From Candidatus Nanoarchaeia archaeon (GTDB taxonomy: Archaea > Nanobdellota > Nanobdellia > Woesearchaeales > JACQSR01), in assembly GCA_035289105.1 (NCBI GenBank), contig DATDYF010000040.1:1-62087 (forward strand): a stretch of 62,087 nucleotides of DNA, read 5' to 3'. Positions 1,138-56,443 of this stretch are shown one piece after another. Positions within the stretch are counted from its first letter, which is position 1; each line of letters begins with the position of its first letter. The position numbers were made by a program, and so were the translations under genes. The notes under the pieces were generated by a model that saw only the letters and a program-made list of their open reading frames with translations, ran no database searches and was not told where the DNA came from.

Positions 1138-1575
1138 ATGGGAAAAAAATCTCGCGGATTGGGAGCCGGAAAGAAGCTCAAGAAAAGGCGATCCAGAGCC
1201 AGGTGGAGCAATAAATGGTATACTAAGAGGGTTTTAAGGCTAAAAGAGAGGTCTGACCCTCTGGGGGGAATTTCACAGGGAACTGGGATTGTGCTTGAAA
1301 AAATCCAGCTTGAAGCAAAACAGCCAAATTCTGCGATGAGGAAATGCGTCCGTGTCCAGCTTACAAAAAATGGCAAACAGGTAACTGCTTTCCTGCCTGG
1401 CGACGGCGCAACAAAGCTTGTCAATGAGCATGACGAGGTTATGATTGAAAGCATTGGCGGCAAAATGGGCAGGTCAAAAGGCGACATCCCCGGAGTCAGA
1501 TGGCAGGTGATTAAGGTCAATGGACAGTCCCTTGATGCGTTGCTTTCAGGAAAACTGGAGAAGGCAAGAAAATGA
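1138..1575 (+). CDS. rps12: 30S ribosomal protein S12 (uS12)
   Basis: [30 protein letters not shown] motif; 145 aa. Confidence 0.95.
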
Positions 1576-2165
1576 TCAAGGCATTCAACAGGTGGTCTAC
1601 TGAAGGGATTCAGGTGCAGGACTTAGGCCTGCAAAGATACGTCTCCCTCGACCCAAGGATAGTCCCAAAAACCGGCGGCAGATACGCTAAAAATAGGTTC
1701 CACAAAAGCAGGGTGTTCGTTGTTGAAAGGCTCATAAACAAGGTGATGATTCCCGGCCACAAGTCAAAGAAGCACTTCAAAACAAGCTACCATTTAACCG
1801 GAAAGGCCCTTACAAGCTACCAGATTGTCGAAGACACGTTTAAGCTTATCGAGTCCCAGCTTAAGGAAAATCCGGTTAAAGTTTTTGTAAAGGCGCTTGA
1901 GAACGCTGCACCAAGAGAGGAGATTATCACAATCGAGTATGGCGGAGCAAGATACCCCAAAGCGGTTGAATGTTCACCGCAGAGAAGGATTGATATTGCA
2001 CTTAGGCTGATGACCCAGGGAGCCTACCAAAAATCATTTAACTCAAAAAAGGGAGTTATCAAGTCGCTGGCTGATGAGATTATTTCCGCATTCAACCTAA
2101 GCTTGGCTTCCCATGCCATCTCAAAGAAAAACGAGGTAGAGCGACAGGCAGATGCTTCTAGGTAA
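1572..2165 (+). CDS. rps7: 30S ribosomal protein S7 (uS7)
   Basis: 197 aa; 4-nt ATGA overlap with rps12; [36 protein letters not shown] block. Confidence 0.95.
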
Positions 2166-2173
2166 AATTCTAT

Positions 2174-2821
2174 ATGAAAAAGATTTTTATTGAGGGTTTT
2201 TTGGATGGCAATATCGATATCGACAGCTCGAAGCTGAAAGGCTTGCCAAAAAGGCTTGGTCTTCTGTTTCCTGTTCAGTACGCTCACATAGCACCAAATC
2301 TTATTGAGATGCTTGAAAAAGAAGGCATTAAGGTGGAGACTGGAGGGGACCAAAAATACAGCTCCCAAATTCTTGGCTGTGACATTTCAGCTGCCAAGGA
2401 GGTCGCCGAGAGGGTGGAGGGCTTCCTGTATTTCGGAGATGGCCATTTTCATCCAGTCGCAATTGCCGTTCAAACGGACAAGCCAGTTTATTGCCTAGAC
2501 CCCGGAACCGGAGAATTCTATGATGTAAGGGCGGAGGCAGAAAAAATCAAAAAGAAGAACAAGGCAAAGTATATCAAATTCCTCAGTGCTGAAAACATAG
2601 GGATTCTTGTCTCAACGAAGCCAGGGCAATTCAATATGAAGGCTGCAGAAGAGCTTCAAAAAAAATATCCTGAAAAAAAATTCTACACTTTCCTCTTTGA
2701 CACCATTCAGCCAAGTTATCTCGAGAATTTTCCTTTTGTTGACGCATTTGTCACGACCGCATGCCCGCGAATTCAGGAGGATTTCCCAAATGTTGTTGAT
2801 TTTAAGGCACTAGATATATAA
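2174..2821 (+). CDS. dph2: Dph2-like 2-(3-amino-3-carboxypropyl)histidine synthase, N-terminally truncated (domains 2-3 only)
   Basis: 215 aa. ILGCD, GDGHFHP and TTACPRI motifs align with the C-terminal two thirds of archaeal Dph2 (about 340 aa). The first domain and its Cys ligand are absent. Confidence 0.7.
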   Translation: MKKIFIEGFLDGNIDIDSSKLKGLPKRLGLLFPVQYAHIAPNLIEMLEKEGIKVETGGDQKYSSQILGCDISAAKEVAERVEGFLYFGDGHFHPVAIAVQTDKPVYCLDPGTGEFYDVRAEAEKIKKKNKAKYIKFLSAENIGILVSTKPGQFNMKAAEELQKKYPEKKFYTFLFDTIQPSYLENFPFVDAFVTTACPRIQEDFPNVVDFKALDI

Positions 2822-3745
2822 CCCGACCCTATCCTGAACCATTGATGAGCCTATGCCCTTCCCAATAAGAAAAGAGTTTTTGCCTAGAAGCCCCGTGAAT
2901 AGCTCAGCAAATGATGGTTCTTTTTTGTATTCTATAATATTTACAGACGCGTTGAATTTATTCTCGAGGTAAGCAACGGCTTCCTCTTTTCCGCCAAGCT
3001 CGTCAACAAGGCCAAGCTCTTTTGCTTTGGCGCCAATGAAGAAAAGGCCGGTTGAAATCTCGGCAGTTTGGGCCTGGGTAAGGCGCCTTTTTTCTGCTAC
3101 ATCCGACAGGAATATTGAATGCACTTCATCAAGCTGCTGCTGGAGGATAGCCTCTTCGGGATTGGTCAGCTCCCTGAACGGGTCTCCAATATCCTTGTAC
3201 TTGCCTGCCACCAACCGCCTGTACGTTACATTGTAATCCCTCAATAAGCCTGCAAACTCCAAATACGAACTTATTACACCAACCGAGCCGGTAATTGACA
3301 GCCTGTTTGCAATTATATAATCTGTGGAAGCCGCAACCCAATAAGCACCAGATGCCCCGACTTCCCTGATGAACGAAATCTTAGGTTTTTTTACCTTGCT
3401 GATTGAGCTTACAATTTCATCTGAAGCAACCGCTGAGCCCCCGGGGCTGTTAATCTCCAGAATTATAGCGTCAATGCCGGAATCTTCCGATGCTTCCTCA
3501 ATGAATCCCATGATTTCTGAAGAAGAGGCTACAGGCTCAAAAAAGGATTCCTTCCCGGTTAGGATGGGACCTTCAATCTTAATCAGCGCAACATTTGATT
3601 TTCCAAGCAGGCCGGGATTTGGGGAGTCAAAGAGGGACACCAGCATTCCTATAAATGCTGCACCAATGATGATTACAACTGCAACGATTGCCAAAAGAAT
3701 TCCCCACCGTGTTTTTGGGTATTCGTCCTGCCTCTTTTTTTCCAT
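2810..3745 (-). CDS. sppA: signal peptide peptidase SppA (36K type, S49)
   Basis: N-terminal TM helix; LEINSPGGSAVASDEI serine motif; GASGAYWVA. Confidence 0.85.
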   Translation of the reverse strand: MEKKRQDEYPKTRWGILLAIVAVVIIIGAAFIGMLVSLFDSPNPGLLGKSNVALIKIEGPILTGKESFFEPVASSSEIMGFIEEASEDSGIDAIILEINSPGGSAVASDEIVSSISKVKKPKISFIREVGASGAYWVAASTDYIIANRLSITGSVGVISSYLEFAGLLRDYNVTYRRLVAGKYKDIGDPFRELTNPEEAILQQQLDEVHSIFLSDVAEKRRLTQAQTAEISTGLFFIGAKAKELGLVDELGGKEEAVAYLENKFNASVNIIEYKKEPSFAELFTGLLGKNSFLIGKGIGSSMVQDRVGLYI

Positions 3746-3844: not shown

Positions 3845-4189
3845 ATGAGCAAGAAGAAAGAAGAGCAGGAAAGGCAGGAAGAATACGAGCAGCAGATAAG
3901 CAGAATTAAAACTCCACATGGTAACCAGAGCTTCGGGATTCTTGAGCAGCGGTTGGGCGGCTCCAGAACGAGGGTAAGATGCCTCGACGGGAAAACAAGG
4001 ATTTGCAGGATTCCGGGTCGGCTAAAAAGGACATTATGGGTGAGGGAAGGCGACCTTGTGATTGTTGAGCCATGGGAGTTTCTTGGGGATGAGAAGGGCG
4101 ACATAGTGTATAAATATTCAAAAGCGCAGGTTTCTTTCCTTAAGGCAAAAGGCTACCTTTCAAAGCTTGAAGATTTTGAAGAGTTCTGA
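3845..4189 (+). CDS. eif1a: translation initiation factor aIF-1A
   Basis: S1-like OB fold sequence [39 protein letters not shown]. Confidence 0.9.
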
Positions 4190-4267
4190 TAGACATCATT
4201 CAAGGACTACACTTATCATTACTCGAGCACAGAAATACTTAAATACGCTCATTTGTTTGTTTTTTCC

Positions 4268-4690
4268 ATGGAGAAAACCAAAACGATATCGCTTATAATC
4301 GTTGACGTTCTGCTTTTGTTTGCCCTTGTCGGGCTTACAACGGAGGTTTTCAAGCTTAAGCGTTTTGCTTTTTACGGGGAGTTTTTTCTAACCCTGCTGT
4401 TTGTTGCGCTGGTTTTTATCGGGCTTGTTGCAGCTTTCAATTCAATGAGGTGGGGCTCGGTTTTGCTTTCTTTTTCCTCAATACTTATTATTGCGGATCT
4501 TCTGCTGGTTTACGCTTTAGCAAAAAGACCAGATATAATCCTTGTAATTTCCCTTTTAGCTGCGGCCCTGAGTTTGGTGCTGGCTGCATTGAGCATAGGA
4601 AAAAACGAGGATTACCTCACAAAGGCGGCTGATGGCCAGATTGAGGAGATAGAGCCGGTAGAGAAAAAGGGCAAAAAGAAGGGAAAATAG
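4268..4690 (+). CDS. hypothetical membrane protein (4 predicted TM helices, K-rich tail)
   Basis: ATG at 4268 preferred over TTG at 4253; TATA-like AATACTTAAATAC about 28 nt upstream; hydrophobic segments. Confidence 0.5.
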   Translation: MEKTKTISLIIVDVLLLFALVGLTTEVFKLKRFAFYGEFFLTLLFVALVFIGLVAAFNSMRWGSVLLSFSSILIIADLLLVYALAKRPDIILVISLLAAALSLVLAALSIGKNEDYLTKAADGQIEEIEPVEKKGKKKGK

Positions 4691-5131
4691 CTATTTTTCT
4701 TCCTTCCATAAAAGAAATATAAGGAAGAGTACGCCAATTGTTATTGCTGCATCTGCCAAGTTGAATATTGGCCAGATTTTGAAATCAAAAAAATCAACCA
4801 CTGAGCCGCGAAAGATTCTATCTGCAAGATTTCCTAAACCGCCTCCAAGAACCAATCCAATGGGAAGTATGTAAACAATCCTCTCGGGCACCTTATCGTA
4901 ATAGTACAGGATTAACCCCAGTATAAGGATTGTAATGAAAATAAAAGCGGTGTTTATGCCCTTGAAGAGCCCAAAAACTATGCCTTCATTGGAAGACACG
5001 TTCAATGAAAACCAAGTGAAAATTTCTAATTGATTTCCAATCCCGACAAAGCTTAATGTTAAATACTTGGAAATCTGGTCCAAAAGCAATACTATGGCGG
5101 CAAAAAGAAAAAGCGACTTCCTGTTCACCAT
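4691..5131 (-). CDS. lspA: lipoprotein signal peptidase (signal peptidase II, A8)
   Basis: LLLDQISK, SNEGIVFG, GGGLGNLADRI, VVDFFDF and FNLADAAITIG reproduce the conserved LspA boxes, including both catalytic Asp positions. Confidence 0.9.
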   Translation of the reverse strand: MVNRKSLFLFAAIVLLLDQISKYLTLSFVGIGNQLEIFTWFSLNVSSNEGIVFGLFKGINTAFIFITILILGLILYYYDKVPERIVYILPIGLVLGGGLGNLADRIFRGSVVDFFDFKIWPIFNLADAAITIGVLFLIFLLWKEEK

Positions 5132-5494: not shown

Positions 5495-6163
5495 TCACAC
5501 CTCCTTTACAAACTCCGATGCCTTTTCTTCCATTTTCTCCTTAATCCTCGAGAGTTGGGATTTAACAAAAGATGAAGGCAACTCCTCAAGGAATTTTATT
5601 GCGGGAGATTTGGGATATGCAATTATGTTTCCGGAGTTTATTTCCATCAAAAAGGATAAGCCATCAAGCTCTGCATCCTTTAGCAATAGCAAAAAAACCT
5701 GGTGCCTTTGCGGCGAATTAGATTTTAATATTTCCTTGGATTCCTCGTTGCTTAATGTTTTTCCATTGAAACTTACACCTTTTGGAGCCAAGCTATCAAG
5801 CCCCTGTTCCGTCAGAATGAAAACCCTTTGATAGTTTGGATTAGGGGAGATAGATTCTGCAGTCAACTGCGAAAGGAAAGATTCTTCGAGAATGGCTATG
5901 TTATCTCCAGTTTTCTCAAAACCAGACACAAAATTATCTTCCATAGACAGGAGAAAAAGGGTTTTTGAACTTTCTATATCACTGGTTAAATCCTGAAAAT
6001 CGTTATATACCCTTACGCCTGTCACAAGCAAAATAACTATAGTTGCAATTACCAGAAATGTGAAAAGCAAAAGCAATGCTTTTACAAGGCTCCGAATAAA
6101 TGAGAAAATAATAATAACTCCAATGATTACCACTATCATCCAGATGGTTATTGGAAAGTACAT
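5495..6163 (-). CDS. hypothetical membrane-anchored protein
   Basis: 222 aa; two N-terminal TM helices; 1-nt spacing to the downstream gene (operon with lspA). Confidence 0.5.
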   Translation of the reverse strand: MYFPITIWMIVVIIGVIIIFSFIRSLVKALLLLFTFLVIATIVILLVTGVRVYNDFQDLTSDIESSKTLFLLSMEDNFVSGFEKTGDNIAILEESFLSQLTAESISPNPNYQRVFILTEQGLDSLAPKGVSFNGKTLSNEESKEILKSNSPQRHQVFLLLLKDAELDGLSFLMEINSGNIIAYPKSPAIKFLEELPSSFVKSQLSRIKEKMEEKASEFVKEV

Positions 6164-6292
6164 AGTGGAAATCTTGGCTGGGAGTTATTTAAAGGTATGT
6201 TTTTTACTAGCGGCGCAGATAAGCTACCTAAGAGTAACAAATAAACAATCTTTATAAATGACAGCTAATTAGCGTTTATCCGGGGGATAACC

Positions 6293-10208: not shown

Positions 10209-11372
10209 ATGGAATACAGGGACATGCTTAGTTACCTTTACAATATTGAATCGGAAAAAAAGTGGAAGTTTGGACTTGAAAGAACCGAGATGCTTCTGGA
10301 AAAAATAGGCAATCCGCATAAACATGTTAAGGCTTTCCATGTTACAGGAACGAACGGCAAGGGAAGCGTCTGCGCAATGATTTCAGCAATAATCGGCAGA
10401 AGGCATAAGGTAGGCATGTTTACCTCCCCCCATTTGGTGTCTTTCAATGAGAGGTTTGTTATAGGGGGCGAAGAAGCCTCAGACGAACAAATCCTGGCTG
10501 TTTTCAGCAAAATAAAGCCGCATATCACAGACCAGACATTTTTTGAGATTGTGACATGCATGGCATTTCTTCTTTTCAGGGAAAAAAAAGTGGAATACGC
10601 AGTTATTGAGGTCGGCCTTGGGGGCAGGCTTGACGCTACTAATGTGATTACGCCATTGGTGTCTGTGATAACAATGGTAGATTATGAGCATACTAATATT
10701 TTAGGGGAATCTCTGGAGGAAATTACTCTGGAGAAATGCGGCATAATAAAGCAGGGCATTCCGGTGGTGACCGGCTCAAAGAAAGAGATTGTGCTTAAAA
10801 TAATTGAGAGGGTCGCAAGTTCTAGAGGCTCGGAGCTGGTTGTTTCCCGGGAGAGATATAAAACAAACCTGTTAGGTGATTACCAGGAGCTTAATGCGGG
10901 AATATCTGTTACTGCCATCAGAAAAGCAGGCTTAAGTTTCTCGGAGCACGAGATAGAGGATTCGCTGATGAATGTTTCGCTTAAAGGGAGGCTGGATTAC
11001 CACGGAAACTTACTTTTTGACGTGGCACATAACCCTTCAGGGATAAATTCCCTTGTTGAATATTTAAAAAGCCACGAGAAAAAGAGAATTATTTGCATTT
11101 TTGGTGTGCTTTCAGATAAGGACTGGAAAAAGATGGTAGATAAGCTTTGCGAGGTCGCAGATTACTTTGTGCTTACAACGCCACAGAGCGACAGGGCTCT
11201 GGACCCTTCAGTTGTCGCAAATTACATAAGTGGGAAAAAAGACTGTGTTGTGGAAAAAACTCCGCAAATGGCTTTTGAGTTTGCAATGGGAATGGCCAAG
11301 AGGGAAGAACTTGTGCTTGTTACCGGTTCATTTTATGTGGTTGGCGATTTTTATCAAAAAGTTTTTAAATGA
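10209..11372 (+). CDS. folC: folylpolyglutamate synthase / dihydrofolate synthase (Mur ligase family)
   Basis: P-loop HVTGTNGKGS, EVGLGGRLDATN, DVAHNP. Confidence 0.85.
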   Translation: MEYRDMLSYLYNIESEKKWKFGLERTEMLLEKIGNPHKHVKAFHVTGTNGKGSVCAMISAIIGRRHKVGMFTSPHLVSFNERFVIGGEEASDEQILAVFSKIKPHITDQTFFEIVTCMAFLLFREKKVEYAVIEVGLGGRLDATNVITPLVSVITMVDYEHTNILGESLEEITLEKCGIIKQGIPVVTGSKKEIVLKIIERVASSRGSELVVSRERYKTNLLGDYQELNAGISVTAIRKAGLSFSEHEIEDSLMNVSLKGRLDYHGNLLFDVAHNPSGINSLVEYLKSHEKKRIICIFGVLSDKDWKKMVDKLCEVADYFVLTTPQSDRALDPSVVANYISGKKDCVVEKTPQMAFEFAMGMAKREELVLVTGSFYVVGDFYQKVFK

Positions 11373-21586: not shown

Positions 21587-23518
<1,932 letters not shown>

Positions 23519-24807: not shown

Positions 24808-26040
24808 TTACAATATTATCCCATAACCAATCAAACGGAACCTGTTGACTATCCTTCTGGAGATTGTAACACGCGCTCCCTTCTCGGCGCAAACCGGCAT
24901 CTTCAATTTGCAGGAAATCCTGTCTTTTTTAACTTCAGCAACCATTCCAACAGTGGCTGCAGAGTAAACATTCAGCATCAATGGCTCATTGATTTTAATC
25001 GGGTCCACAATGAGGTCTTCCTTCAAGCCAACAACACGCTTGAGCAAGTGCACTTCAAGGTCAAAGCTTTCCCACACGGGCGGCAATTTTCCAGGAAGGC
25101 CGGCAACAGAGCCTGTCAGCTTGTCGCTCTTTACAACGAAAGGGTCTAACGTAGTGAGAAGGCCTATAGAGCCTCCGGCTATTGCTTCCTCAACGTCAAA
25201 GCCGCCAGTCCTAATCGAGGTTATTTTTGTAAGTATCGGCTTTCTAATCTTCTGGTTTTTCTCTTCAAACTCAAAGCCAGGCCTTATCTCTATTTCGCTT
25301 CCATTTTTTAGCTTCCCCTGCTTGATTGCCCCTCCAAGGACTCCACCGGCTAAATTATTTATGTCAGCTCCGGGCTTGTTGATGTCGAAGCTTCTTGCCA
25401 CAAAAAACATCGGGTCTTTGTTCAAGTCGCGCTCCGGGGTTGGCAGTCGCTCTTCGATAGCCTGTATTAGGGGCCCAAGGCCAAGGCGGTGCTGGGCAGA
25501 GGTAGGGATTATTGGCGCATCATTAAACGCTGTGTCCTTGATGAGTTCCTTTATCTGCTCGTAGTTCCTTACTGCCCTCTCCTCGCTAACAAGGTCAACC
25601 TTGTTCTGGACAATGACGATATTTTTTACGCCAATGACCTCCAAAGCCATCAAATGTTCACGCGTTTGCGGCTGCGGGCATTCCTCATTTGCTGCTATCA
25701 GCAATAAAGCGCCGTCCATTATTGTAGCGCCGGAAAGCATTGTTGCCATCAGGGATTCATGCCCGGGGGCGTCAACAAAGCTTACCTTTCTTAAGAAGTC
25801 TGAAGGGGTGTCGCAATGCGTTTCGCTTGTTGTAAATTCCCCGCATTTCTGGCATTTTCTGAATACAACATCTGCGTAGCCAAGCCTTATTGTGATGCCC
25901 CTCTTAATTTCCTCGGAATGGGTATCTGTCCATTTTCCAGACAGGCGCTCAAGAAGGGTTGTTTTTCCGTGGTCGACATGGCCCACCATGCCGATGTTCA
26001 AAACGGGCTGAATGCCCTCTGCAGTTTTTTTCTTTGACAT
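24808..26040 (-). CDS. eif2g: translation initiation factor aIF-2 gamma
   Basis: GHVDHGKTTL, DAPGH, NKVD, zinc knuckle CQKCGEFTTSETHC. Confidence 0.95.
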   Translation of the reverse strand: MSKKKTAEGIQPVLNIGMVGHVDHGKTTLLERLSGKWTDTHSEEIKRGITIRLGYADVVFRKCQKCGEFTTSETHCDTPSDFLRKVSFVDAPGHESLMATMLSGATIMDGALLLIAANEECPQPQTREHLMALEVIGVKNIVIVQNKVDLVSEERAVRNYEQIKELIKDTAFNDAPIIPTSAQHRLGLGPLIQAIEERLPTPERDLNKDPMFFVARSFDINKPGADINNLAGGVLGGAIKQGKLKNGSEIEIRPGFEFEEKNQKIRKPILTKITSIRTGGFDVEEAIAGGSIGLLTTLDPFVVKSDKLTGSVAGLPGKLPPVWESFDLEVHLLKRVVGLKEDLIVDPIKINEPLMLNVYSAATVGMVAEVKKDRISCKLKMPVCAEKGARVTISRRIVNRFRLIGYGIIL

Positions 26041-31435: not shown

Positions 31436-32260
31436 GTGTTTAAGATAAAGCTAAGCAGCGTCCTGATTGTAGTCTTGCTCTTTTTTGTAGTTCTGCTTAT
31501 CTCAGGGTGCAGTGAATGCAGCGAGGCAGAGGATTGCCCGCCGGCTGCTACCTGCAAGACAGCCGTATGCGATGACGGCAAATGCGCCACTACGGCTGTG
31601 AAAGACTGCTGCGGCAACGGCATCGAGGACGCCAAAGAGGATGGCAAGACAGGGAATAAATGCACCTGCCCCGAGGATTATGGAGAATGCAAAGGAAAGG
31701 CAAGCATGCTTGTAAGGAACAAAAAGATTGATGCAACTTATCTCGAGCAGGGCTGCGAAGATGATGAGTGTGTTTACAAGATCGATGAGAGCAGGGTCAA
31801 ACGAACGGATTTGGCATTTGAGAGGGAGCTTTCATATTTCACTTTTGATGTCTTGGTAACGTATAACAATCCATTTACAGTGAACAAGGACAAGGTTGAA
31901 GTTAGCCTTAAGCTAAAGGACGAAAAGCCCGACCTTGTTTACCCAATAGAGATTACCGCAATAAGGCTGATTGAAGGGCAGACCTTGTTTGGGGGAAAAG
32001 ACGGCCTGGCTGGAAAGTTTTCGCAGATAGGCGAGGTATTTTCAGTCCAGATACCGATAACTTATGAGAGCGCCCTCATAGAAGAAGAAAGGTCCGCTAC
32101 TCTTAAAGTGGATTATGAGTACAAAAAGAGGATAAGAACAACAAAAAATCCAGATGGAACGTACAACTACATCGAAGAGCTTGTAAGGGATTCCTTTGAG
32201 TCAAAGCTTGGAAAGAAGATATTCTTCCTATTCCCGGGAGCTGTTGAAAATGAACAGTAA
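31436..32260 (+). CDS. Cys-rich secreted lipobox protein
   Basis: Signal peptide ending LLISGC (lipobox). 14 Cys in the next about 60 aa, including DCCGNG. Confidence 0.6.
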   Translation: MFKIKLSSVLIVVLLFFVVLLISGCSECSEAEDCPPAATCKTAVCDDGKCATTAVKDCCGNGIEDAKEDGKTGNKCTCPEDYGECKGKASMLVRNKKIDATYLEQGCEDDECVYKIDESRVKRTDLAFERELSYFTFDVLVTYNNPFTVNKDKVEVSLKLKDEKPDLVYPIEITAIRLIEGQTLFGGKDGLAGKFSQIGEVFSVQIPITYESALIEEERSATLKVDYEYKKRIRTTKNPDGTYNYIEELVRDSFESKLGKKIFFLFPGAVENEQ

Positions 32261-47190: not shown

Positions 47191-47883
47191 ATGAAGAAGC
47201 TTGTGATATTGCTGGTTTTTGTACTAATTTTATCTGGGTGCGGAGAAAATATTCCCGCAGGGGACAAGACTATCCCTATAGTTGAAGACGTAATTCAGAA
47301 CGACACTGCGAAGGTTGCGGAAATTGAGGACAAGAATGTTTCTATTTCTGAAGTCGGTGAAGAGCAGGCTGAAGAAGAAACAGAAGAACCTAAGGTCATC
47401 GATATAAATGATGTTCAAAAGATAGACACTGATGTAGACTTAAGCAGCTTTCCAGAGCTGTTTTTGGGGGATGCTGATGGCAAGACGGTTGCGAATGCTG
47501 TCATTGTAGTAGGGAAGAATGCCCCTGCAAAAGATGTCATTTCTGCCACAATTGTTGCAACGGCATTAAATGAATTGGTGGAGGAAAAGGGTGGCAGGGC
47601 CTTGACCAAGCTTGACGATGAGGTTGAGAGCGCGCTTGACAGAAATGCAATTGTGATAGGAAACCCCTGCGACAATGCAAAGGCAAAGGAATTGATGGGA
47701 ATATCAGACTGCAATGCGGATTTGGAGCCAAAGAAGGCGATGATTAGGCTATACGAGAACAACGGGTTTGTGCAGATGACAATTGTCGGATATGATGCAG
47801 AAGGAACTTACAAAGCAGCGCAGAAGCTGGTTGACAAGACTTCTGCCTTGGAAGGAAAGTTCCTTGTGATGGGTTATTCTTGA
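47191..47883 (+). CDS. secreted lipobox protein with S-layer-like domain
   Basis: MKKLVILLVFVLILSGC lipobox; acidic linker; VIVVGKNAPAKDVISA...IVIGNPCDN resembles archaeal S-layer domain patterns (recollection). The track start at 47098 lies inside the tRNA. Confidence 0.6.
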   Translation: MKKLVILLVFVLILSGCGENIPAGDKTIPIVEDVIQNDTAKVAEIEDKNVSISEVGEEQAEEETEEPKVIDINDVQKIDTDVDLSSFPELFLGDADGKTVANAVIVVGKNAPAKDVISATIVATALNELVEEKGGRALTKLDDEVESALDRNAIVIGNPCDNAKAKELMGISDCNADLEPKKAMIRLYENNGFVQMTIVGYDAEGTYKAAQKLVDKTSALEGKFLVMGYS

Positions 47884-52914: not shown

Positions 52915-53931
52915 ATGAGAAAGATAGCAATATTCCTTATTATCGCATTACTCTTGCTTGGCTGCACAAAGCCGATAGAACCAAAACCGATTATTGTGGA
53001 TATAGACGAAGGCGCCACCTCACGGGGCTTCTTTATTGGAACTTCAGGGTATGCCCCGGCCAACTTTCCTTCTTCGAGCTCTGCTGAAGTACAGGCATTC
53101 TGGAGCGATGTTGGCAAGTCTGGAGAGCTTTTCGGGGTACATACAGACTGGAAGGAAACTGGCATAATTGCGGTTTCTTCCCAATTTTCAGATCTGGTTT
53201 TGGTGCTTGGATTCCAGAAGCCTGAAGAGTGGGAAAATGATGTAGAGGAATTGAAAGACTCTATAAGGGACATTCTAAGGGATAATCCAAGAGTAAAGTA
53301 TCTGGCAATAGGCAATGAAGTCAACACACTTTACGAGCAGTTCCCAAACCAGTTTGACAATTTTGTTTCTGCGTATAAAGAGGTTTATCAAAGCGTAAAG
53401 GCAGAATTTCCAAACGTAAAAGTCTTTACAACATTCCAGCTTGAAGCCATGAAAGGCAAGGGCTATCTGACCGGAAAGGCAAGGGAGGAAGAGTGGTTTT
53501 TGCTTTCAAAGTTTGGTGATTCATTAGATATTGCCGGCTTTACAACTTACTCTTATTTTGATTATACTGACCCTGACAAGATTCCTTCTGATTATTACGG
53601 CGAGATAAAGCAATACACAAACAAGCCGGTTGCCTTTACAGAAATAGGCTGGCCTGCGCGGTCAAGATGGGGCGGGAAGCTTTCAAAGCTAAATGAGCAG
53701 GGGTTTACAGGCTCTGAGAAAGAGCAGGTTGATTTCCTCAATAGGTTCTTGGATACAACAAAGAGTTTGGATTTGGAGTTTGTAAACTGGATTTTCATAA
53801 ACGATATTGTTGCATGGAAAGATGGGGAAGAGCCAAAGCAGTTTCCTCTTTTTGATTCCATCGGACTGAAATACCACGATGGAACAGCTAAAGAAGCCTG
53901 GAATGAATGGCTAAAGCTGAAGTCTACCTAG
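52915..53931 (+). CDS. secreted lipobox glycoside hydrolase, clan GH-A (GH17-like motifs)
   Basis: MRKIAIFLIIALLLLGC lipobox; AIGNEVN (acid/base) and FTEIGWP (nucleophile). Confidence 0.65.
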   Translation: MRKIAIFLIIALLLLGCTKPIEPKPIIVDIDEGATSRGFFIGTSGYAPANFPSSSSAEVQAFWSDVGKSGELFGVHTDWKETGIIAVSSQFSDLVLVLGFQKPEEWENDVEELKDSIRDILRDNPRVKYLAIGNEVNTLYEQFPNQFDNFVSAYKEVYQSVKAEFPNVKVFTTFQLEAMKGKGYLTGKAREEEWFLLSKFGDSLDIAGFTTYSYFDYTDPDKIPSDYYGEIKQYTNKPVAFTEIGWPARSRWGGKLSKLNEQGFTGSEKEQVDFLNRFLDTTKSLDLEFVNWIFINDIVAWKDGEEPKQFPLFDSIGLKYHDGTAKEAWNEWLKLKST

Positions 53932-55984: not shown

Positions 55985-56443
55985 ATGAAAAAGACAATCA
56001 TAGTTGTTAGCTTGATAATTGCAATGGCATTGTTAGTTGCCGGATGCTCTGAAAAGCCCCAATTAAACCTGCCGGAGAAAAAGATTACCGTATTCAAGTC
56101 TCCAACATGCGGGTGCTGCGATATTTACTCAAAATACATGAAAAACCAGGGGTTTGAGGTGGAAGTGACAAACACATATGATATGGACCCTATCAAAAGC
56201 AAGTATAGCATTCCACCTCAGCTTACAAGCTGCCACACCACAATAGTTGGAGATTATTTTGTGGAAGGGCATGTTCCATTTGAGGCTGTTGTTAAGCTCC
56301 TTACAGAAAAGCCGGATATCGCAGGAATTGGAATGCCTGGGATGCCGTCCGGAAGCCCGGGAATGCAGGGGGCAAAGCAAGGGCAGTTTGTTATCTCGGC
56401 AGTCGGCAAAGACGGCAGCATATCAGAGTTCATGAGGATTTGA
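55985..56443 (+). CDS. DUF411 (CopG-like) metal-binding lipobox protein
   Basis: LLVAGC lipobox; SPTCGCC, SCHTT, EGHVP, GMPGMPSGSPGM. AGGTGG 7 nt upstream of the ATG. Confidence 0.8.
   Translation: MKKTIIVVSLIIAMALLVAGCSEKPQLNLPEKKITVFKSPTCGCCDIYSKYMKNQGFEVEVTNTYDMDPIKSKYSIPPQLTSCHTTIVGDYFVEGHVPFEAVVKLLTEKPDIAGIGMPGMPSGSPGMQGAKQGQFVISAVGKDGSISEFMRI

Follow-up and report, generated by a model that had tools for sequence, protein, structure and literature searches.

A bacterial-type signal peptidase II (LspA) in a Candidatus Nanoarchaeia archaeon and its probable place in a lipoprotein maturation pathway

Introduction

Does an archaeon possess a genuine bacterial-type lipoprotein signal peptidase and, if so, what would such an enzyme do beside archaeal lipid genes? 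The question is raised by lspA, the putative gene for signal peptidase II (LspA) close to the beginning of contig DATDYF010000040.1 of a Candidatus Nanoarchaeia archaeon (assembly GCA_035289105.1). The whole contig (C40), a stretch of 62,087 nucleotides (nt), was analyzed and is referred to as the window; it is part of a genome of 1.32 Mb, for which completeness is 92% and contamination 0.6%. The original prediction for this locus, made from the DNA alone, remarked that machinery of this kind is generally regarded as bacterial, which matches the current literature: specialist papers up to 2026 describe archaea as being without such enzymes, and treat the archaeal lipoprotein signal peptidase as unknown (PMC12462473, PMC13631571). 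No paper describing an archaeal (DPANN) LspA or Lgt was found in the literature searched, and Castelle et al. 2021 do not mention lipoproteins (PMC8204110). Since the NCBI pipeline already names close relatives of the protein "signal peptidase II," the gap lies in the literature and not in the databases. What the analysis presented here reveals is a known family of enzymes with a new member in a domain where none was expected.

Results

The LspA protein

Judged by its sequence, its conserved residues and its modeled fold, the open reading frame (ORF) is a genuine, full and typical LspA. It matches PF01252 (Peptidase_A8) with 114.6 bits (cut-off 25) over profile positions 2-140 of 142, and the NCBIfam lspA equivalog TIGR00077 with 95 bits (cut-off 73.95). 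Together with the archaeal genes on the same contig (Table 1), these scores bear out the proposal that an LspA is encoded in an archaeal genome. The closest named database proteins are the "signal peptidase II" of a Nanoarchaeota archaeon (62% identity) and that of a Candidatus Woesearchaeota metagenome-assembled genome. Alignment with the solved enzymes of S. aureus and P. aeruginosa runs from end to end at 31-35% identity, although the archaeal protein is the shorter, with 146 residues compared to about 163-169 in the native bacterial enzymes (the 6RYO chain, according to the alignment, includes a 24-residue tag).

The S. aureus enzyme is characterized by 14 highly conserved residues and a catalytic dyad formed by Asp118 and Asp136 (PMC6952399). 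Using the residue list of that study and an alignment to 6RYO, all 14 are matched in the archaeal protein: D18, K22, N48, G50, G98, N101, D104, R105, V111, D113, F123, N124, A126, and D127. The counterparts of the dyad are D113, within VVDF, and D127, within FNLAD; in P. aeruginosa the corresponding pair, counted on the 9emz alignment, is Asp124/Asp143. The two catalytic aspartates had been assigned to the boxes GNLADR and FNLADA, which are read from the sequence at residues 100-105 and 123-128. Both aspartates are present and D127 does lie in the second box, but its partner is D113 and not a residue of GNLADR. The latter box holds conserved Asn, Asp, and Arg residues, and its D104 is the counterpart of S. 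aureus Asp109, which is conserved but non-catalytic.

An alignment of 30 archaeal LspA orthologues with a mean identity of approximately 40% has invariant columns at D18, K22, N48, G50, G97, N101, R105, D113, F123, N124, A126, and D127, among them both catalytic aspartates and eight other residues of the 14; another three of the 14, namely D104, V111, and G98 (mapped to alignment G97 or G100), are at least 90% conserved. Invariance of these columns at such a level of overall identity is what would be expected from long purifying selection on catalytic function.

Hydropathy analysis reveals four membrane segments. The AlphaFold2 model, built on the 30 archaeal orthologues, has a predicted local distance difference test (pLDDT) score of 93.2 and a predicted template modeling (TM) score of 0.86, and shows four transmembrane helices plus a β-cradle. 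When it was submitted to Foldseek, the significant PDB matches were all LspA structures (TM-score 0.81-0.86) and the next match had an E-value above 1; the TM-score is 0.86 to 6RYO, with a root-mean-square deviation of 1.8 Å, and likewise 0.86 to 6RYP. The protein thus shares its four-helix fold, β-cradle, Asp dyad, and 14 conserved residues with the bacterial enzymes (MEROPS A8; S. aureus 6RYO/6RYP and P. aeruginosa 5DIR), and its predicted activity is the cleavage of lipidated prolipoproteins. As a side observation, the LspA ORF of one relative (G011; L007:1468-2544, plus strand) is 358 residues long and apparently fused to a further domain.

Lgt, Lnt and lipobox proteins

As in bacteria, LspA is accompanied by an Lgt in the same genome and by lipobox substrates. 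There is a single Lgt, encoded on another contig (C59), and it scores above the TIGR00544 equivalog cut-off (Table 1). Aligned to E. coli Lgt (5AZB), it retains the counterparts of Y26, H103, R143, N146, E151, G154, and R239; at the positions of E243 and Y235 it has D and L instead, and the head region is shortened. Two of the arginines have literature support, and the further positions compared are those which we take to be important. The former, R143 and R239, are treated as important in PMC12462473. The doubt that accompanied the original prediction, namely that no prolipoprotein-modifying enzyme might exist, falls with this Lgt; the search for Lnt (TIGR00546), in contrast, gave no match in the 92%-complete genome. 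In a relative (G036:C27:18358-19341), the Lgt matches fall into three pieces within one 366-residue open frame, as if with insertions.

The four lipoboxes that had been pointed out in the window (LISGC at 31436, LSGC at 47191, LLGC at 52915, and VAGC at 55985) are all real. A loose, PROSITE-style lipobox rule applied to all ORFs of the genome encoding at least 80 residues yields 67 ORFs, with Cys at position +1 approximately twice as frequent as any other residue relative to residue frequency. Under the strict rule an ORF must encode 100 or more residues and have a basic n-region, an uncharged hydrophobic h-region, and a [LVIFMA]x[GAS]C box. Genome-wide, it is satisfied by 34 ORFs, among them the four just named. 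Cys makes up 1.9% of residues, yet under the strict rule it is as frequent at +1 as Phe, and four to eight times commoner there than Thr, Asp, Glu, Lys, Asn, or Gln.

A Lit-family protein

The window also encodes a membrane protein which, on the basis of homology, is a Lit-family member and would be a putative third bacterial-type lipoprotein enzyme. Its score against PF07314 is 89.7 bits (cut-off 24), but the NCBIfam equivalog cut-offs are not reached (46 versus 400 bits for NF051877; 62 versus 74.8 for TIGR01906). Alignment to B. cereus Lit (7B0O) reveals that His85, His153, Phe157, Trp162, Val89, and Phe149 are kept; H86, H163, and F167 of the archaeal protein are the residues which align to His85, His153, and Phe157.

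Distribution among relatives

Two samples were screened. One comprised 41 relatives drawn from 38 families of the order, with closed one-contig genomes among them, and the other 201 genomes from across the phylum. Among the 41 relatives LspA is present in 39, Lgt in 38, and the Lit family in 27-29. At the level of the phylum, LspA and Lgt each occur in 184 of the same 201 genomes: 177 possess both, 7 LspA without Lgt, 7 Lgt without LspA, and 10 neither. The ten genomes of the last group come from just six families, all outside the order of the window (f78, f82, f85, f89, f90, and f96). LspA and Lgt thus behave as a single module; these are counts without a p-value, as kin are not independent.

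The three-gene unit and its promoter

The tight three-gene unit that had been predicted is real: on the minus strand, lspA stands third and last, after a gene for a 222-residue membrane protein and one for a 122-residue coiled-coil protein (Table 1). A single base separates the stop codon of the first gene from the GTG start of the second, the stop codon of which overlaps the start of lspA by 7 nt (ATGGTGA). Upstream of the first gene lies TTTAAATA, which resembles an archaeal TATA box and has its center approximately 27 nt from the ATG at 6163. Archaeal TATA boxes are usually situated about 27 nt from the transcription start. Given this spacing, TTTAAATA would act as the promoter of a leaderless or near-leaderless operon transcript.

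The 122-residue partner consists of an N-terminal amphipathic motif (MxFLDKLKFWKK), a variable linker rich in Pro and Gln, a C-terminal coiled coil (KLDAlKA..NQRL.NlE), and a terminal Trp. Of 28 same-order genomes, 25 have a homologue at the lspA locus; in about 22 it stands directly upstream, often with a 4-7-nt overlap. Homologues also occur in one family of another order, but none was found in 10 bacterial loci, and the genome has no paralogue. Pfam offers no family, merely sub-threshold coiled-coil matches such as NPV_P10 and DivIC, while the ESM Atlas neighbors are clusters of Woesearchaeota-only hypothetical proteins, the stored model being poor (pLDDT 0.54). Our guess is that it might be a membrane-peripheral accessory or scaffold protein. 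Two small zinc-ribbon proteins with two CxxC pairs (L041:2917-3288 and L048:4502-4867) carry a C-terminal helix motif, INEKLDKI, as found in the partner family; this likeness is probably a mere shared helix. In family f81, which belongs to another order, a different conserved protein of about 165-176 residues takes the partner's place directly upstream of lspA, often with a 4-nt overlap.

In the 222-residue protein, residues 1-54 form a hydrophobic N-terminal anchor, behind which lies an alpha/beta domain. Homologues are found in 11 of the 28 same-order lspA loci. The protein has no Pfam match. Its AlphaFold2 model (pLDDT 84.8) was compared by VIA-align, where residues 65-187 matched nine LytR-Cps2A-Psr (LCP) entries with Z-scores of 6.4-7.9 over 110-119 aligned residues; Foldseek returned nothing below an E-value of 0.001. 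The match of the ectodomain to an LCP-like fold is consistent but borderline, and is to be taken as a lead and not as a finding.

Five same-order genomes without LspA were searched with the partner profile, giving one match (G055), a sample too small for a conclusion on co-loss. This genome, in which no LspA is detectable, has kept the 222-residue-like and coiled-coil genes as a pair (L077:756-1878), from which we surmise that the first two genes may constitute a separate unit that usually has lspA appended. In G055, a convergent gene for a Lon-like protease follows the pair in the usual place of lspA.

Other genes of the window

The features discussed are collected in Table 1. In addition, a gene for a 145-residue protein with four transmembrane helices (4253-4690, plus strand) converges with lspA, with 0 bases between the stop codons; its UbiA-like match is weak and sub-threshold (19 bits), and its conservation is largely limited to the genus. 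About 950 nt from lspA there is a gene (2810-3745, minus strand) for an SppA-type signal peptide peptidase of family S49, a synteny seen within the genus only (L051 and L052). This archaeal contig also carries a Mur-ligase-family gene (10209-11372, plus strand) and a bacterial-type DNA gyrase B gene (21638-23518, plus strand).

Table 1. Coordinates of the features discussed. Positions refer to the window unless a genome, contig, or locus is given.
Feature	Position	Strand	Remarks
lspA, signal peptidase II, 146 aa, four transmembrane helices	4691-5131	-	PF01252, TIGR00077, alignment, model
Coiled-coil partner gene, 122 aa	5125-5493	-	second gene of the lspA unit
Membrane protein gene, 222 aa	5495-6163	-	first gene of the lspA unit
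TTTAAATA	6186-6193	-	archaeal TATA-box-like element, read from sequence
Lit-family membrane protein, 239 aa, four transmembrane helices	33498-34217	-	PF07314
Lgt	G000:C59:20992-21699		other contig, same genome; PF01790 221 bits, TIGR00544 192.6 bits (cut-off 118.9)
Lipobox protein LISG/C	31436-32260	+	Cys at position 25; no Pfam match
Lipobox protein ILSG/C	47191-47883	+	S-layer-like outer domain; PF05124 42.7 bits
Lipobox protein LLLG/C	52915-53931	+	no Pfam match
Lipobox protein LVAG/C	55985-56443	+	DUF411 domain; PF04214 81.8 bits
Ribosomal protein S7	1572-2165		on lspA contig
Dph2	2174-2821		archaeal gene on lspA contig
aIF-1A	3845-4189		about 500 nt from lspA
aIF-2 gamma	24808-26040		on lspA contig
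Proteins upstream of lspA in family f81	L047:2884-3414, L039:2886-3383, L049:2884-3402, L034:1968-2477, L045:2886-3407		in place of the 122-aa partner

Discussion

In our judgment the gene very probably specifies an active type II signal peptidase belonging to a native, long-inherited lipoprotein maturation pathway of the bacterial type. By analogy with the bacterial pathway, about 30 precursors with a lipobox would be exported through Sec, and Lgt would join a glyceryl lipid to the lipobox Cys via a thioether bond. LspA, as an aspartyl protease with the dyad D113/D127 at the outer membrane face, would then cut just before the lipidated Cys, and the Lit-family protein of the same window may remodel the anchor, with no Lnt taking part. 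Being the last gene of a unit with an archaeal-type promoter, lspA would be translationally coupled to the lineage-specific coiled-coil protein. Enzymatic activity, the order of the steps, the lipid used, and any roles of the operon partners are inferences. Its closest parallel is the Firmicute-type Lgt-LspA-Lit pathway, which leads to lyso-form lipoproteins (B. cereus Lit, 7B0O) and uses the same three enzyme families without Lnt; the catalytic histidines of Lit and the surrounding aromatic residues are conserved in the archaeal protein. In contrast to that pathway, the archaeal Lit-like protein is far below the equivalog cut-off and patchily distributed among the relatives.

Several observations weigh against this reading. 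A few high-quality relatives have one enzyme and not the other (7 + 7 of 201). More serious is the question of the lipid. The lipid genes above cut-offs number two, a CDP-archaeol synthase (120.7 bits) and one CDP-alcohol phosphatidyltransferase, for which the best model is PgsA with 71.7 bits, below the PgsA cut-off. No PlsY, PlsC-type acyltransferase, GpsA, separate CdsA, GGGPS, or UbiA-type DGGGPS was detected above cut-off in this 92%-complete genome. The lipid genes of the host are thus of archaeal type, a difference from bacteria, and the Lgt donor would accordingly be an archaeal ether lipid with the opposite glycerol stereochemistry; we know of no Lgt or LspA that accepts such a lipid. 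From its gene content the organism would activate archaeal core lipid obtained by scavenging, and would be able to produce a head group resembling that of archaetidylglycerol. DPANN archaea scavenge lipids, and archaetidylglycerol is the ether analogue of the normal Lgt donor. A further conflict concerns Lit, the reaction of which transfers the sn-2 acyl chain, held in ester linkage, to the amino group of the Cys (PMC8275575). Such a chain is not available from an ether anchor, and, as no acyl-lipid synthesis genes were found, the ester substrate that the Firmicute-type pathway provides is unaccounted for here.

These same lipid genes lend some weight to another explanation, that LspA has been retained but repurposed and cuts something else, for example lipobox precursors that carry no lipid or membrane peptides of a different class, in which case the bacterial-type names would overstate the action of the pathway on archaeal membranes. 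The shorter length of the enzyme, its coupling to lineage-specific partner genes unknown in bacteria, and the seven genomes of 201 with LspA and no detected Lgt point in the same direction. Nevertheless, all residues of bacterial LspA that contact globomycin or substrate are conserved, Lgt co-occurs with LspA in 177 of the 201 genomes, both genes are missing together in whole families, and classical lipobox substrates are abundant; we therefore regard repurposing as improbable, albeit the strongest competitor of the lipoprotein maturation pathway.

Whether the gene reached this lineage recently is a separate matter. Maximum-likelihood analysis of 67 LspA sequences, 50 from archaea and 17 from bacteria, over 154 columns gave a largely unresolved tree, with 9 of 63 branches well supported. 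Constraining all archaeal sequences to a single clade lowers the log-likelihood by 6.4 units, and such a clade is not rejected (p of the approximately unbiased test, p-AU, 0.38). The bacterial sequences were the nearest hits of the query, which biases placement; with such a tree no donor can be named. The weak position of the window's genus next to Actinomycetota, together with an identity to the best bacterial matches (about 43%) that equals the identity to other Woesearchaeota, might suggest a recent, sporadic bacterial transfer into this one organism with little functional importance. The Actinomycetota placement is itself subject to the bias just described, a single archaeal clade is compatible with the data, no GC anomaly was seen around lspA, and 184 of 201 genomes of the phylum have the gene, mostly as part of one conserved pair; this scenario is very unlikely. 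The distribution argues for the presence of LspA since early in the class. As to its origin, which may be one ancient transfer from bacteria or older still, the phylogeny which had been proposed as a check for horizontal transfer neither shows nor excludes such an event.

A mis-binning of bacterial DNA into an archaeal genome, for which nothing speaks except the bacterial flavor of the LspA family, can safely be dismissed: the archaeal genes that had been said to flank lspA (aIF-1A, aIF-2 gamma, Dph2, and S7) do share its contig, contamination is minimal, and lspA and lgt both lie on the single closed chromosomes of two relatives (G019 and G028).

The nearest archaeal comparison is with AliA and AliB of Haloferax volcanii, since lipobox proteins are found in both systems and those of haloarchaea are lipidated on Cys and then cleaved (PMC12462473, PMC13631571). 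AliA and AliB (arCOG02177/02178) resemble Lgt only marginally, and the signal peptidase of haloarchaea has yet to be identified, whereas here the canonical Lgt and LspA families are present. A bolder and decidedly tentative proposal, which we rate as possible but doubtful, is that Woesearchaeota-type archaea run a complete Lgt-LspA-Lit chemistry. They would do so either with ester diacylglycerol lipids across the "lipid divide" (in scavenged or mixed membranes) or with an Lgt and LspA adapted to ether-linked archaeol of opposite stereochemistry, LspA perhaps working with a lineage-specific LCP-like and coiled-coil module that lacks a bacterial counterpart.

The presence of intact canonical enzymes in about nine of ten sampled genomes of the phylum corrects the statement that archaea have none, and with LspA a candidate lipoprotein signal peptidase of archaea is at hand. 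The conserved partner genes provide a further lead. It becomes a testable question which membrane lipid is attached and recognized by bacterial-type enzymes when the lipid genes of the organism itself are archaeal. This matters for what is understood of the lipid composition of DPANN archaea and of their dependence on hosts.
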